A stretch of 64,000 nucleotides of DNA from an uncultured delta proteobacterium (GCA_963848135.1 CAWKCK010000018.1:386938-450937); one strand, 5' to 3'; positions 50,292 through 61,333 are shown, counted from the stretch's first letter. Notes: a model not told the origin generated them from the sequence alone. Translations and numbers: made by a program.

Positions 50292-50762
50292 GTGGGAAAA
50301 GGGCAGAAAAAGAATATTGCCGAGAATCGCAAAGCCCGCTTCAACTACCACATCGAGGATGTGTATGAGGCCGGCCTCGTTCTCATGGGGACCGAAGTAA
50401 AGTCACTGCGTCAGGGACGAGCCAACATCAAGGATGCCTATGCCAAGATTAAAAATGGCGAGGTGTTTGTCTATCAGATGCACATCAGCCCCTACCCTTT
50501 TGCCTACTATGACAATCACGACCCGCTGCGTCCGCGCAAGCTGCTGCTGCACAAAAGCGAAATCAAGCGTCTCTATGGAAAGGCAAACGAGCAGGGGGCA
50601 TCTCTCATACCCCTGAGACTCTATTTCAAAAACGGGAAAGTGAAAATTTCTCTGGCCCTGGCAAGGGGCAAAAGAAAATATGACAAGCGTGAATCGATAC
50701 GACGCCGTGACGAGCAACGAGTGTTGGAACGCGCGCGAAAGAAATATACCAGCCGTTATTAG
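50292..50762 (+). CDS. smpB: SsrA-binding protein
   Basis: NRKARFNY, GTEVKSLR, RKLLLHKSEI, GKRKYDKR. Confidence 0.98.
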   Translation: MGKGQKKNIAENRKARFNYHIEDVYEAGLVLMGTEVKSLRQGRANIKDAYAKIKNGEVFVYQMHISPYPFAYYDNHDPLRPRKLLLHKSEIKRLYGKANEQGASLIPLRLYFKNGKVKISLALARGKRKYDKRESIRRRDEQRVLERARKKYTSRY

Positions 50763-50983: not shown

Positions 50984-51334
50984 GGGGGCGAAACGGCTTC
51001 GACGGGGACAAAGAAGCTCAGGCTGCATACCGAGCATCCTGCCAGCTCGTAAATCCGGTGGGGCATAAACATAATCGCAGACGATTATGCATACGCTGTA
51101 GCAGCTTAGCTACCGTCCTGCCAGGCTACTCCCACGGGCCTGGTAAGGGCGTCGACTAGTGGGATAGCCGATCCTGGGTACCTGTAACGGGTGAGGCGAA
51201 ACTTTAGCAGGTTGGCTTTGCGGACATCCCGCCTGGAGGAGTTCCGCAAGGCGAGATTCAAAGTTCAGGATAAGTATGTAGAGGTCTGGGTGGAATGTTT
51301 TCGGACGCGGGTTCGACTCCCGCCGCCTCCACCA
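50984..51334 (+). ncRNA. ssrA: tmRNA; tag peptide (A)ADDYAYAVAA
   Basis: 5' GGGGGCGAAACGGCTTCGACGGGG, 3' GGGTTCGACTCCCGCCGCCTCCACCA; tag ORF 51077-51109; adjacent to smpB. Confidence 0.97.
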
Positions 51335-51574
51335 TTTTATTGTACTAATTACAATAAGTTATACCAATTTATAGCCTTCAACATGTTGTAGATATGTTGT
51401 AGGCTTTTTGTTTTTCAGGTATCTTTTGTCTATCGCTAATATTTTGTAATTTCATTTATCCATATAGATAGACATAATGTTTGAAAGAGTATGGTCTGCC
51501 CCTTGCGACGTGGGTTAAGCTGTGGGACCTAATTGGGTCATAACGGCTCAGAGCCATAACCAAGGAGGCAGACC

Positions 51575-52687
51575 ATGAAAAAGAAAATATTATATGTTGG
51601 TTTGGATGTCCACAAAAATACCATTGATGCAGCAATAACAAACAGCCGGTCAAATGGTAAGGTGAGATCCTACGGTAAAATTAACAGCACTCTCGATGCA
51701 CTGGACAAGCTGGTTGAGAAGTTAAAAGGCAACAATGTCGAGCTTCGATTTGTATACGAAGCCGGACCATGTGGCTACCAGATTTACCGGCACCTTGCTT
51801 CCAAAAACATCAGCTGCTCTGTGGTTGCCCCTTCCATGATTCCCAGAAGAAGTGGCGATCGGATCAAAACCGACCGTCGCGATGCCATCAACCTGGTAAG
51901 GTTATATCGGGCCGGTGAGTTGACCAGCATTTATGTACCGACCGTTGAAGATGAAGCCATCAGGGATCTTGTCCGCTGCAGGGATGACATCAGGCGCATC
52001 GAACGTAAAGCTCGCCAACGACTCCTATCATTTTTACTGCGTCATGGGCATCACTACAGCGGTAAGAGGCATTGGACAAAGGGCTTTTATAATTGGCTGG
52101 CAAAAATCAGGTATTCTCAGACGGCCCAACAAATTGCTCTTCAGGAGTATATCGATACGGCAAGTGAATGTAGCGAAAGGGTCAAACGAATCACCCAACA
52201 AATACAAGTGCATGTTGACCAGTGGAACCGGGCACCCTATGTGAGAGCCTATCAAGCCCTGCGAGGCGTATCGTTAATTGTTTCGGCCACCGTTGTGGCC
52301 GAGATTGGCGATATGAACCGTTTCCCGAACCCCAAGCAGCTAATGGCCTATCTGGGACTCATCCCTTCAGAGCATTCCAGTGGTAAAAAGGTCCGCCGGG
52401 GCTCGATTACCAAAACGGGCAACAGTCATGTGCGACGGGTTTTGGTCGAAGCGGCCTGGACCTATAAAATGCCAGCACGAAAATCTATAATACTTCTTAA
52501 ACGTCAGCAGGGATTACCCAAAAGCGTGTGCGATATATCCTGGAAAGCCCAAACACGCTTATGCGCCCGTTACCGGCGACTTATTGCCAGGGGGAAATCC
52601 AGACAGGCCACAGTGACCGCCATCGCTCGCGAATTGAGTGCTTTTATGTGGGCCATCGATAAACAAATGAAACTGACCATTTCATAA
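51575..52687 (+). CDS. IS110 family transposase (DEDD recombinase)
   Basis: YVGLDVHK, VYEAGPCG, KTDRRDA, AYLGLIPSEHSSG, ITKTGN. Confidence 0.96.
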   Translation: MKKKILYVGLDVHKNTIDAAITNSRSNGKVRSYGKINSTLDALDKLVEKLKGNNVELRFVYEAGPCGYQIYRHLASKNISCSVVAPSMIPRRSGDRIKTDRRDAINLVRLYRAGELTSIYVPTVEDEAIRDLVRCRDDIRRIERKARQRLLSFLLRHGHHYSGKRHWTKGFYNWLAKIRYSQTAQQIALQEYIDTASECSERVKRITQQIQVHVDQWNRAPYVRAYQALRGVSLIVSATVVAEIGDMNRFPNPKQLMAYLGLIPSEHSSGKKVRRGSITKTGNSHVRRVLVEAAWTYKMPARKSIILLKRQQGLPKSVCDISWKAQTRLCARYRRLIARGKSRQATVTAIARELSAFMWAIDKQMKLTIS

Positions 52688-52696
52688 AATACTTTT

Positions 52697-52882
52697 TTCC
52701 CGCTTCCCTGAAGAGGTGTGACTACGGAAAGGAGAATCCTCGTTTCTGCTATGGGAATATAAAACTCCCGCTTAATAGAGAGAGGCAGCTCCGCGACGAA
52801 CCTAAGTCATGCGGTAACCAACCCGCGTATATCAGCATGATCATCCGTCGCTAAAAAGTCGCGCCTCTTCAGGGAGCCGGGA
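52697..52882 (+). ncRNA. putative bridge/seek RNA of the IS110 element
   Basis: Long closing stem plus two internal-loop hairpins whose loops match the target and donor junction sequences (folded by eye). Confidence 0.72.
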
Positions 52883-52968
52883 GGATAAATTGCCCCATGT
52901 CAAAATAGGGATGGACCAGTATTTTCTAATTGACACTTTCAAACATATCAGCAGTAATCGTGAGTCGG

Positions 52969-53417
52969 TCAGACCTTATGTTTTGTTGGTGATAGTACAG
53001 GTTTCGAACCAGATTTCATCAGCCCAATATATTGTATGGTCAGAACTTTACGTGCAATATCCATGAACCCTTTCATGATAGGCGAAAGCCATTCCCCCTT
53101 ATGCCAGATCATTAGTTGAGTCGCTTCTATGTTAATTTCTGACCATGGTAAGGTTACCGAATATTTCAACTCAAGCTCACATCGATTTCAGGGATTAAAG
53201 TTACGCTAAATCCGGCGGCCACACATTCAATGATGGCTACAACACTATTAAATTCAAGAACCATTTTGGGCTCACACCGTGACTCCTGCAAGATTTGCTC
53301 AAGTATTCGCCGATAACTACAATCAACCCGCGAGAGTAAAAGTTTATGGTCAACCAACATGCCTAAAGCTGTACTGAAGATAAAATCCCAGGGACGGATG
53401 CCGCTCAATCCAGCCAT
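52969..53417 (-). pseudogene. LysR-family regulator remnant (substrate-binding domain only, frameshifted)
   Basis: CSYRRILEQ..EFNSVVAIIECVAAGFSVTLIPE and MIWHKGEWLSP split over two frames; no HTH. Confidence 0.75.
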
Positions 53418-54781: not shown

Positions 54782-55132
54782 ATTTTCTCAGAACCCTTGA
54801 CTTATGGGTTTCAGGAATCTCTTTGAAAAAATCTTTCATTTTTTCAGATGAGCAGATCGGATTTCACAGGAAAACACATCAGTAAAATATTCATACAACT
54901 TGCCACTGTACGACATAAAAAGGTAATTGACTGAAAGCGTTACAGAGGTCATTATCTGCCTGTTATTTCTGCAAAAAACGAAAGGAGGCAGTGATGAACC
55001 TCGAACACGTTTCCGCAGAAACCCAGACCGATCAACGCTGTCCTAATTGCCAGTTAATGGCACAGCAAATCTGAGAAAATGGGGTGACACTCCCGAGTGT
55101 AAAAACCTATTACACAGAAAGGAGTGAGACCC

Positions 55133-56944
55133 ATGGCAAAGAAAAAGAAGAACCGTTCGGCCGGGGGGAAGAAAGCCACCCGGACCTGGGCCTATCCGGT
55201 TGAGTTCCGAGTCCGGATCGTTAAACTCTTCATGGAGGAGGGCTACAGCGCCTCGCTGATCAGTGAACAGCTCGGCATAAGCCATCATTCGATCCGCCGC
55301 TGGGTCAATGCGTACCGGCAGGGCGGTGTCCAGGGATTGGAGCCCAAGCCTCGCCCAGGAAGTAAATCCAGCGTAAAGCCTGAGGTCCGGCGGCGAATGG
55401 TGGCGGTCAAGAAGGCGCACCCGGAATACGGACCGCGACGAATCGCCGACGTCCTCAAACGGTTTTTCCTTATCCCTGCCAGCCAATCAACTGTCCATCG
55501 AACGCTGTCCGACAATGGATTGGTCAGCAAGGCCAAGCGCAAACCGGTAAAGAATCCTTCCAAGCCCAGGTTTTTCGAGCGCTCCCGTCCCAACCAGCTG
55601 TGGCAGAGCGACATCATGTCCTTCCGGCTGGCCGGACGCAACGCCTACCTGATCGGCTTCATGGACGATTACAGCCGCTACATCACCGCCCTGGGATTGT
55701 ACCGCAGCCAGACGGCCGCCCATGTGCTGGAGACCTATCGCCGGGGTATTGCCGAATACGGTGTGCCCAGGGAGATGCTCACCGACAACGGCCGCCAGTA
55801 CACCAACTGGCGGGGCAAGACGCGCTTCGAGCGGGAGATGAAAAAGGACCGTGTCAAGCATATCCGTTCGCGTCCCCACCATCCCATGACCCTGGGAAAG
55901 ATCGAGCGTTTCTGGAAATCGATCCTGGGCGAGTTCCTCCAGCGGGCCCAGTTCGACAGCTTCGAGCAGGCGGTGGAGCGAACTAATTTTTGGATCAAAT
56001 ATTACAATCACCGACGCCCTCACCAGGGTATCGGCGGCCTGTGCCCGGCCGACCGATTCTTCGAAATCGCCCACGAGCTGAAGAAGACCCTGCAGCGCGG
56101 CGTCGAGGAAAACGCACTCGAATTGGCGCTTCGGGGCCGCCCGGTGGACCCATTTTACATGGTCGGTCGCATGGGCGGCCAATCGGTGGTCATCCGTGCC
56201 GAAAAGGGCAAGGTCAGGATGCTGGTGGACGAGGCCAGCCACAAAAAAGAACTTGTGTACGACGCAAGAAAGGATATAGACCATGAAGACAAGCCAACGA
56301 ACCCGCAGAGTATTCGACCCGCAGCAGAAAATAACGGCCGTTTTGTCGATCTGGAGCGAGCGGCGCACCAGCGCCCAGGTTTGCCAGGAACTGGAGATCG
56401 AGGGCATGCTCAAGGCCCTGGACCCAAAGCAGAAGGACCCGCTGCCGCCGATCAACCAGCGGTTGTCCCGGCTGATCGCAAAGAAGCTGAACGATCCGGG
56501 CGGCAAACTGGAAAAACGTCTCCAATCCATCCAGAAGGCAGCGTCGGCCGGATAGGCGAGGAAGCCTATGGCAAAGCAACCATCGAATCAGCAAATGGCG
56601 CGGCTCAGGGCCGAGATGATCATGAAGGTCCGCTGCGGCCTGCTTACCGCCCGCCAGGCCGCCGATCGGCTGGGCGTGTCTCGCAAGACGTTCTACAAGT
56701 GGGAGACGCGGGGACTGTCCGCCCTTCTGGACAGTGTGACCGACCAGCCTCCCGGCCGCCCGTCTCATCCGTCGGACGACCATCGCCAATGGCTGGAGAA
56801 GCAGCTCCAGGACGCCAACCGGCAGATCGAACTGCTGAACCACAAAATGGCGCTGAAGGATGTGCTGATGGATTTGAAGCTTCCCCAAACCGGCAGCGAC
56901 CGGACGAAAAAAAAATGAACGCATCCGACAGGCGGTGGCCATGA
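55133..56944 (+). CDS. IS481-like DDE transposase (C-terminal ~190 aa probably spurious run-on)
   Basis: HTH; LWQSD, LTDNGRQY, GKIERFW, YYNHRRPHQGI; tail is low-complexity and overlaps two other ORFs. Confidence 0.9.
   Translation: MAKKKKNRSAGGKKATRTWAYPVEFRVRIVKLFMEEGYSASLISEQLGISHHSIRRWVNAYRQGGVQGLEPKPRPGSKSSVKPEVRRRMVAVKKAHPEYGPRRIADVLKRFFLIPASQSTVHRTLSDNGLVSKAKRKPVKNPSKPRFFERSRPNQLWQSDIMSFRLAGRNAYLIGFMDDYSRYITALGLYRSQTAAHVLETYRRGIAEYGVPREMLTDNGRQYTNWRGKTRFEREMKKDRVKHIRSRPHHPMTLGKIERFWKSILGEFLQRAQFDSFEQAVERTNFWIKYYNHRRPHQGIGGLCPADRFFEIAHELKKTLQRGVEENALELALRGRPVDPFYMVGRMGGQSVVIRAEKGKVRMLVDEASHKKELVYDARKDIDHEDKPTNPQSIRPAAENNGRFVDLERAAHQRPGLPGTGDRGHAQGPGPKAEGPAAADQPAVVPADRKEAERSGRQTGKTSPIHPEGSVGRIGEEAYGKATIESANGAAQGRDDHEGPLRPAYRPPGRRSAGRVSQDVLQVGDAGTVRPSGQCDRPASRPPVSSVGRPSPMAGEAAPGRQPADRTAEPQNGAEGCADGFEASPNRQRPDEKKMNASDRRWP
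56283..56555 (+). CDS. transposon accessory HTH-like protein (possibly internally deleted)
   Basis: RRVFDPQQKITAVL..SAQVCQELEI resembles an IS3 OrfA-type HTH start; AAGGA RBS. Confidence 0.65.
   Translation: MKTSQRTRRVFDPQQKITAVLSIWSERRTSAQVCQELEIEGMLKALDPKQKDPLPPINQRLSRLIAKKLNDPGGKLEKRLQSIQKAASAG
56568..56918 (+). CDS. HTH plus coiled-coil transposon protein (OrfA-like)
   Basis: TARQAADRLGVSRKTFYKWE..PPGRP followed by a leucine-zipper-like segment; ends in an A9 run. Confidence 0.82.
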   Translation: MAKQPSNQQMARLRAEMIMKVRCGLLTARQAADRLGVSRKTFYKWETRGLSALLDSVTDQPPGRPSHPSDDHRQWLEKQLQDANRQIELLNHKMALKDVLMDLKLPQTGSDRTKKK

Positions 56945-61197: not shown

Positions 61198-61333
61198 AGC
61201 AGCAGGCGTGAGTCGGTCAGAGTTTGTCTATTGTTGGAGATACAACAGGTTTTGCACGGCTAAAAAAACTGCGGTACTTAGCAGCGATAGTAGATCTGAG
61301 CTGCGCAGACGGGGAAACACGTCGGCCGACTGA

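Follow-up and report, generated by a model that had tools for sequence, protein, structure and literature searches.

An IS1111-group element beside the tmRNA gene of an uncultured delta proteobacterium, with a conserved 3' RNA whose target loop varies with insertion sites

What chooses the insertion site of a mobile element that borders a repeated hairpin and lies 135 base pairs (bp) downstream of a tmRNA gene? This question is raised by a 64,000-nucleotide (nt) stretch of DNA from an uncultured delta proteobacterium (GCA_963848135.1, CAWKCK010000018.1:386938-450937), hereafter the window, which corresponds to G000:C18:386938-450937, where G000 is the bacterium's own genome; L-numbers such as L031 denote parsed loci. 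The insertion sequence (IS) occupies window positions 51470-52951 (1480 bp plus the duplicated AG). We conclude that it is very probably a member of the IS1111 group of the IS110 family that carries its own target-choosing guide RNA, combining a DEDD transposase, an AG core, and a conserved 3' RNA. An earlier note on this DNA had described an intact IS110/IS1111-type element at 51470..52951, and every feature that it listed was found where it had been placed. The same note had called the element uncharacterised, which holds for this particular element and fails for the class, since the matching NCBIfam model is already named for an RNA-guided transposase and a bridge RNA has been predicted in 93% of ISfinder IS1111 elements (PMC11208160). 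That class was made known in 2024 together with its RNA and its programmability, and, because it has been described and so widely predicted, the element is an ordinary new member that changes no concept. Within the literature on IS1111, seekRNA, and bridge RNA, we found no Desulfobacterales element described, although the supplementary tables of PMC11208160 and PMC11187229 might list a relative.

The family assignment begins with the protein. The transposase gene (51575-52687, + strand) encodes 370 amino acids (aa), in which Pfam, NCBIfam, and structure-chain alignment recognize an N-terminal DEDD domain and a C-terminal PF02371 domain. Specifically, Pfam matches PF01548 (DEDD_Tnp_IS110) at E 7e-15 and, on the C-terminal part, PF02371 (Transposase_20) at E 7e-25, while the NCBIfam model NF033542, named “IS110 family RNA-guided transposase”, gives 260 bits where 140 is the cut-off; together, these matches support the proposed placement among RNA-guided recombinases. 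The nearest solved relatives are ISCro4 (chain 9t56, E 7e-11) and IS621 (chain 8wt6, E 5e-10). In the alignments with both chains, D11, E62, D100, and D103 of the transposase face acidic residues, those of IS621 being ones that we take to be catalytic. The same alignments show that the motif G261-L262-x-P264-xxxx-S269-G270 is kept. A motif of the form GL-P----S(T)G has been described for IS1111-family transposases (PMC11187229). The layout is likewise of the IS1111 type, with the longer non-coding region downstream of the transposase gene (tnp), the right end measuring 264 nt (52688-52951) versus 103 nt for the left (51472-51574).

Within that right end lies a predicted bridge RNA or seekRNA of 185 nt (52698..52882, + strand), in which a closing stem of 26 nt (52698-52723 with 52857-52882, 85% complementary) surrounds two internal-loop hairpins. 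Hairpin 1 (52731..52792, + strand), the target-binding hairpin, is built from GGAG (52731-34) with CTCC (52789-92), CCTC (52738-41) with GAGG (52782-85), and GGGA (52753-56) with TCCC (52766-69). Hairpin 2 (52793..52851, + strand), whose structure is conserved and whose putative donor-binding function is assigned by analogy, is built from GCGACG (52793-98) with CGTCGC (52846-51) and GCGG (52811-14) with CCGC (52823-26). The whole of 52688-52951 folds at -97.9 kcal/mol (z = -7.23), a value that none of 200 shuffles reached, and no Rfam family matches the 3' RNA at E <= 1. Downstream, the minimum free energy (MFE) fold places a small hairpin followed by TATTTTCT (52889..52927, + strand), which could mark the end of a tnp/RNA transcript; a terminator scan did not flag this hairpin, and a hairpin with a T-run occurs at the same place in a distant clade of relatives.

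Those relatives came from a scan of one genome per prokaryotic species that gave 307 pattern matches, 40 of which encode relatives; these fall into 38 loci and show 47-92% protein identity. By their record titles, most belong to metagenome-assembled genomes labelled Desulfobacterales or “delta proteobacterium”, joined by Desulfosarcina widdelii PP31, and a few are labelled Alphaproteobacteria, Gammaproteobacteria, or Nitrospinaceae. Leaving out 7 of the 38 loci without a usable 3' region and 11 exact duplicates, we aligned 21 distinct 3' regions (20 loci and the window). The stems of both hairpins are invariant across this alignment, and its most variable columns are the two strands of loop 1. 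Across its 48 pairs, 96.8% of cells are paired versus 36.9-47.1% with slid partners. The closing stem with its two internal-loop hairpins, as first read from the window, is borne out by position, by folding energy, and by the relatives. Sixteen pairs, every one of which belongs to the closing stem, show changes in both partners, with a covariation score reached by none of 500 shuffles; this stem differs between the clade of the window (n=7) and the distant clade (n=14), yet stays paired in each. Further, a covariance model built from the two hairpins recognizes sequences in 12 of the 151 genomes sampled from the order, the bacterium's own among them, and in 10 of the 113 of good quality. In its own genome, the model finds three copies, namely the window, a copy on C17, and an orphan at C17:1103457-1103584 (L073). 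The orphan lacks a transposase gene and bears the target guides of the window copy, and its stems are mutated (GGAG to AGAG, GCGACG to GCAACG).

The combination of invariant stems and a variable loop directs attention to what the two strands of loop 1 say. In the window, the 5' strand (52743..52750, + strand) is the right-target guide TTTCTGCT, complementary to the top strand AG-CAGAAA, that is, to the core and right flank; the 3' strand (52772..52778, + strand) is the left-target guide TTAATAG, of the same sense as the top strand TTAAT-AG, and, since it repeats the top strand of the left flank and core, it would pair with the bottom strand. Wherever a locus allowed the parsing of its guides and of an end flanked by AG, we set the loop strands against the DNA that borders the element. 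Rows at contig ends or without a 3' region were left out (the right side of L022; L025, L027, L037, L041, L054, L056, and L058), as were L047 with an irregular left end, L049 with an AA junction, and duplicates of the same guide and flank. For the right flank, the distinct events number 26, fall into 11 guide classes, and gave 4.27 matches out of 6, compared with 2.15 +/- 0.50 when guides were permuted by class; for the left flank, 30 events in 14 guide classes gave 3.07 out of 5, compared with 1.86 +/- 0.23. None of 10000 permutations reached either value, and within the distant clade alone, the observed match was reached by 1 and 4 of 10000. Hence, the alignment of homologous 3' ends that the earlier note had put forward as a check, with the loops compared to the insertion sites, shows loop 1 co-varying with both flanks.

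A second set of loci behaves in the same way. The covariance model led to 11 previously unseen loci, of which 10 were scored; the 5' guide of the remaining one, L075, was lost to the parsing pattern and, when read by eye, matches 5/5. The 10 right-flank events, in 6 new guide classes, gave 3.5 matches out of 5 versus 1.58, a value reached by 31 of 10000 permutations, and 4 left flanks match at 3/3. This co-variation in two independent sets of sequences supports the reading that the two strands of loop 1 specify the insertion site. Position by position, the right guide matches in 27-28 of 30 events at positions 1-3, in 19-20 at positions 4-5, and in 9 at position 6, which is background, while positions 1-4 of the left guide match in 30, 26, 19, and 12 of 30 events, against backgrounds of 0.66, 0.28, 0.30, and 0.35. 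On these counts, the effective guide comprises about 3-4 nt, the AG, and 5 nt. An observation of its own comes from L031, where two tandem copies of the element stand about 70 nt apart (about 600-2650) and the left flank of the second, GGGTTC-AG, matches the guide AGTTCAG.

It is the comparison with relatives, rather than the window alone, that makes the target-loop reading solid. Among 2000 shuffles of the window 3' region, a 7/8 match to the reverse complement of AGCAGTAA appeared at least once in 8% and a 7/8 match to CATATCAG in 10.6%, whereas a 5/7 match to TAGATAG appeared in 96.8% and a 5/8 match to the reverse complement of AGACATAA in 99.9%, so that the 5/7 and 5/8 matches carry no weight by themselves. 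The claim that the bridge RNA matches its own target site thus stands on the co-variation of loop 1 with the flanks of relatives, and the 5/7 agreement of TTAATAG drops out as evidence from the window alone. The site that the guides of the window copy would prefer is (C)TTAAT-AG-CAGAA. Among the junctions in its own genome, TTAATAG is exact at 2 of 4 on the left and AGCAGAAA is exact at 1 of 6 on the right.

The boundaries of the element can be read from these same genomic copies. BLAST aligns the element with its own genome in 22 rows. Besides the window copy, these mark a full-length copy (C17:1249540-1251027) that is 93% identical, a degraded one (C18:602081-603233), one fragment each from the 5' part (C1:223507-224060) and the 3' part (C17:1103143-1103686), and a pair of short remnants of the right end. 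The 4 left ends all start with ATAGACATAATG; the 6 right ends all finish in ..CAGCAG, 5 of the 6 reading CATATCAGCAG and the C17 copy reading CAAACCAGCAG. Moreover, an uninterrupted paralogous site (G000 C1:68816) has the left flank of the copy at C18:603233, and the two diverge exactly after ..CGCTTAAT-AG, the empty site continuing as ..CGCTTAAT-AG-CAGCAGG and the filled one as ..CGCTTAAT-AG-ACATAATG. The AG is the only part common to the left and right junctions, and the crossover core is therefore AG, with its left copy at 51470..51471 (+ strand), directly beyond which the 4 left ends part from the paralogous empty site, and its right copy at 52950..52951 (+ strand). The 4 left and 6 right genomic ends, together with the empty site, accordingly uphold the AG core proposed for both boundaries. 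The core is also constant in the counted junctions of relatives (30 left and 30 right) and in the hold-out loci (10/10 right, 4/4 left), two irregular junctions, L049 (AA) and L047 (extra AA), having been left out beforehand. Inside the core, the left end (51472..51574, + strand) carries CATAAT, the left sub-terminal inverted repeat, and a stem in the 5' untranslated region (UTR) over the ribosome-binding site (RBS) and start, and the right end (52930..52949, + strand) carries TTGACA, the right sub-terminal inverted repeat, and a terminal ATC. The two repeats (51477-51490 and 52933-52946) are 14 nt long and 13/14 (93%) complementary, lying 5 and 3 nt in from the core; sub-terminal inverted repeats of 7-17 bp are a usual feature of the IS1111 group.

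The second loop is presumably the counterpart of the first, with the donor ends taking the place of the target, and hairpin 2 would, by analogy, be donor-binding. Its 3' strand TATATCAG (52828-35) matches the right end and core, CATATC-AG, at 7/8, and it occupies the position in loop 2 equivalent to that of the left-target guide in loop 1. Its 5' strand CTAAGTCA (52802-09) matches the complement of AG-ACATAA at 5/8, which is chance level in the window. In the copies of D. widdelii, the corresponding strand is TATGTC, the perfect complement of GACATA.

These parts suggest a cycle modelled on characterized members of the family. By analogy with IS621 and ISEc11, the element would excise as a circle, whose junction CATATC-AG-ACATAAT would join TTGACA to CATAAT at a spacing of 17 nt and so create a promoter for the transposase; the second loop would hold this junction, and the transposase-RNA complex would exchange strands at AG. 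Both TTGACA (52930-35, -35-like) and CATAAT (51473-78, -10-like) are conserved in relatives. Junction promoters are known in the family, as in the case of Pjunc of ISEc11 (PMC13626964), and that of IS621 has its -35 in the right end (PMC11208160). In the 5' UTR, a fully complementary stem (51491-51500 with 51567-51576), within a fold of MFE -50.9 kcal/mol, covers the RBS (51562-68) and the ATG. The stem is conserved over window 51490-51578, the distant clade having GACCTGCC/GGCAGGTC in place of GGTCTGCC/GGCAGACC, with two compensatory pairs. As to expression, contigs of 4 metatranscriptome runs from 4 studies cover chiefly 51464-51634 and 52775-52888; they are 90-95% identical and extend into the sequence of relatives. 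They lie on the most conserved stretches, cannot show ends or levels, may include carried-over DNA, and are uninformative about the parts they leave uncovered; they are at most a hint that related elements occur in RNA libraries.

Several observations pull the other way from an RNA-guided, mobile element. The covariation of the closing stem is mostly a single split between the two clades of 7 and 14 sequences and so amounts to few independent events. Within the clade of the window alone, guide variation does not track the flanks, the observed match being reached by 6703 (right) and 2740 (left) of 10000 permutations; the sites there all read ..AT-AG-CAG.., and the guides differ only at poorly matching positions. 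Some loci fit poorly, namely the first copy in L031 (1/6), L042 and L036 (2/6), and, in the hold-out, L091 and L087 (2/5), and the element's own site, ATAGAT-AG-CAGTA, agrees with its guides at 6 of 8 informative positions (TAGAT against TTAAT, CAGTA against CAGAA). On another reading, the protein would pick its target by recognizing the DNA of the repeated hairpin, and the loop matches would be incidental. The informative guide is short, and in the bacterium's own genome, 2 of 6 right flanks are clearly the hairpin repeat, with 2 more resembling it weakly. In other genomes, however, the flanks are unrelated to the repeat, yet follow the loop sequences through 17 guide classes, which makes selection by hairpin DNA highly improbable. 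Elements of the close clade sit there in unlike sequences whose common part is only ..AT-AG-CAG(T/A)A. The same list of doubts takes in the donor loop, where the pairing of the ends, above all by CTAAGTCA, is drawn from analogy. The element could instead operate with a seekRNA only, hairpin 1 directing it to the target, hairpin 2 serving as a scaffold for protein binding with no part in donor guidance, and the protein recognizing the ends through the sub-terminal inverted repeats. The chance-level 5/8 match of CTAAGTCA to the left end would then be unsurprising, as would the behaviour of the relatives: both element ends are identical throughout the 21 sequences, so that the donor ends offer no variation and no co-variation backs donor pairing, while the 5' strand of loop 2 changes (CCTAAGTCA, AACAAGTCT, GCTATGTCA) and the left end stays ACATAATG. 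Siddiquee et al. likewise describe target matches only in IS1111 seekRNAs and allow that the two families may not recognize their ends in the same way (PMC11187229). Against this stand the 7/8 match of TATATCAG, in the loop position that mirrors the left-target guide, the perfect complementarity of TATGTC in D. widdelii, and the donor loops that Durrant et al. predict in IS1111 elements (PMC11208160), and we regard a purely structural hairpin 2 as the less probable account, with an appreciable share of the likelihood nonetheless.

A different doubt concerns activity rather than anatomy. A scan of 51300-53100 gave no sigma-70-like promoter on the + strand of the element, so that an internal promoter for the RNA was set aside as a candidate; the production and binding of the RNA are our deduction, the contigs from RNA libraries coming from relatives and covering conserved parts only. 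It could be, then, that the anatomy is right and the element is no longer mobile in this host, as a recent arrival or part of a decaying lineage in which the RNA or the protein is not made. Consistent with this, the window copy is the sole intact one in its genome, the other full-length copy (C17:1249540-1251027) being frame-broken by a 1-nt insertion after about residue 176 and having its right end mutated to CAAACC-AG, and the rest being fragments; the RBS and start codon are, in addition, buried in a stem. By contrast, the window copy agrees with the family consensus in its open frame, its catalytic residues, its two ends and their inverted repeats, and every stem, and a buried RBS with a junction promoter is the control expected for the family, no defect. 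Loss of mobility therefore seems to us an unlikely, if by no means negligible, explanation, and we retain the reading of an element equipped with its own guide RNA, for which the word “programmable” describes a property that we infer.

Comparison with known systems shows where the element falls within the family. It was compared by description with the IS1111 elements ISEc11, ISPa11, ISKpn4, and ISPst6, for which seekRNAs are reported (PMC11187229). Like them, it has a DEDD transposase with GL-P----SG, a long non-coding region downstream of tnp, sub-terminal inverted repeats, and a top-strand complement placed 5' of the bottom-strand complement, a loop-strand order that in IS1111 seekRNAs is the reverse of that in IS110-type elements (PMC11187229). 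It differs in the length of its transposase, 370 aa versus 330-350 aa in the family (PMC11187229), in its AG core, and in a target that is the edge of a host-specific hairpin repeat. With IS621 (PMC11208160; PDB 8wt6), it has in common a two-loop RNA whose two target guides, right and left in the terms of Durrant et al. (PMC11208160), both include the core dinucleotide, the left one pairing to the bottom strand and the right one to the top strand; its putative junction promoter would likewise have the -35 in the right end. However, IS621 carries its RNA in the left end, upstream of tnp, with the guide order reversed, whereas here the RNA lies 3' of tnp; its core is CT and its inverted repeats are 2-3 bp, against AG and 14 nt here; and its protein is distant (E 5e-10), the C-terminal stretch (residues 200-294) scoring well and the N-terminal stretch weakly. 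Also comparable are ISPpu9 and ISPpu10 of Pseudomonas putida, IS110-family elements that insert into repeated extragenic palindromes, with a small RNA gene downstream of tnp and extra RNA copies that lack a transposase (PMC12288879), which may be compared with the orphan at C17:1103457-1103584. The host and the repeat family are different, and the orphan here has mutated stems.

The element is a clean natural case in which RNA guides the choice of target, and it comes from the IS1111 branch, which has been studied less. Its scaffold and donor are fixed and its core is AG versus the CT of IS621, and in many Desulfobacterales genomes both strands of the target guide differ according to where the element has inserted. 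If this is true, at least 17 natural right-guide classes on one scaffold, donor, and AG core would form a ready-made series on retargeting by guide exchange alone. The empirical guide length of about 3-4 + 2 + 5 nt may further be of use when orthologues are picked for engineering and when elements of this kind, with their ends, have to be annotated correctly.

The target itself deserves separate description. The element has inserted at the first bases of a hairpin repeat (52950..52995, + strand) of about 45 nt, of which nhmmer finds 16 copies in the genome at E < 0.001, at window 52950-52995 and about 61198-61250, C18:454340, C18:592913, C1:220951, and 11 further places. The repeat reads T|AGCAGCAGGCGTGAGTCGGTCAGACC.., with a U-rich run after the hairpin on the + strand, and T precedes AGCAG in 14 of the 16 copies; Rfam has no match for it. 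Three copies carry, on the opposite strand, a group II intron (Pfam RVT_1 and GIIM; Rfam RF01999 and RF00029) that ends one base from the IS core and crossover. Because there are known IS1111-attC elements as well as group II introns that target attC, the repeat was considered as an integron attC. A GTTRRRY-like word precedes only one or two copies and the 16 folds lack the paired R''/L''-L'/R' arrangement, and this identity was rejected on those grounds, no dedicated attC search having been made. A coding role was also discarded, as the one frame that is open through some copies contains TAA in about half. We offer, as a conjecture that is more likely wrong than right by a wide measure, that the repeat is a shared landing pad, and that the recombinase may also read the DNA hairpin, given the roughly 8 informative guide bases beyond the core, or that the repeat persists by absorbing mobile elements harmlessly. 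One copy of the repeat, at C18:584233, reads ..GATTAAT-AG-ACATAA-GCGTGAGTCGG, its first 6 bases after the core being those of the IS left end, not CAGCAG; this could be the footprint of an earlier insertion, or a coincidence. Separately, a c-di-GMP-I riboswitch match (RF01051, 52.8 bits) was noted at L012 2749-2831 (- strand), which is G000 C18 near 594160-594245.

The surroundings of the element have features of their own. Upstream lie smpB (50292-50762) and, just before the element, the tmRNA gene (50984-51334, 194 bits). A search of 40 relatives with the left flank (51200-51469) gave no uninterrupted orthologous site for the window insertion, because homology ends at or soon after the tmRNA 3' end (query 135-204). 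The DNA downstream of the tmRNA varies among relatives, as expected for an island. Directly to the right of the element, two short frames at 52969-53417 (- strand) contain a partial LysR substrate-binding domain (PF03466, E 8e-11) and look like a broken LysR gene, and an rve-type transposase follows further to the right (55124-56944). Finally, a 59-nt partial copy of the tmRNA 3' end (86%) lies at G000 C5:356260-356318 and may be an old island junction.

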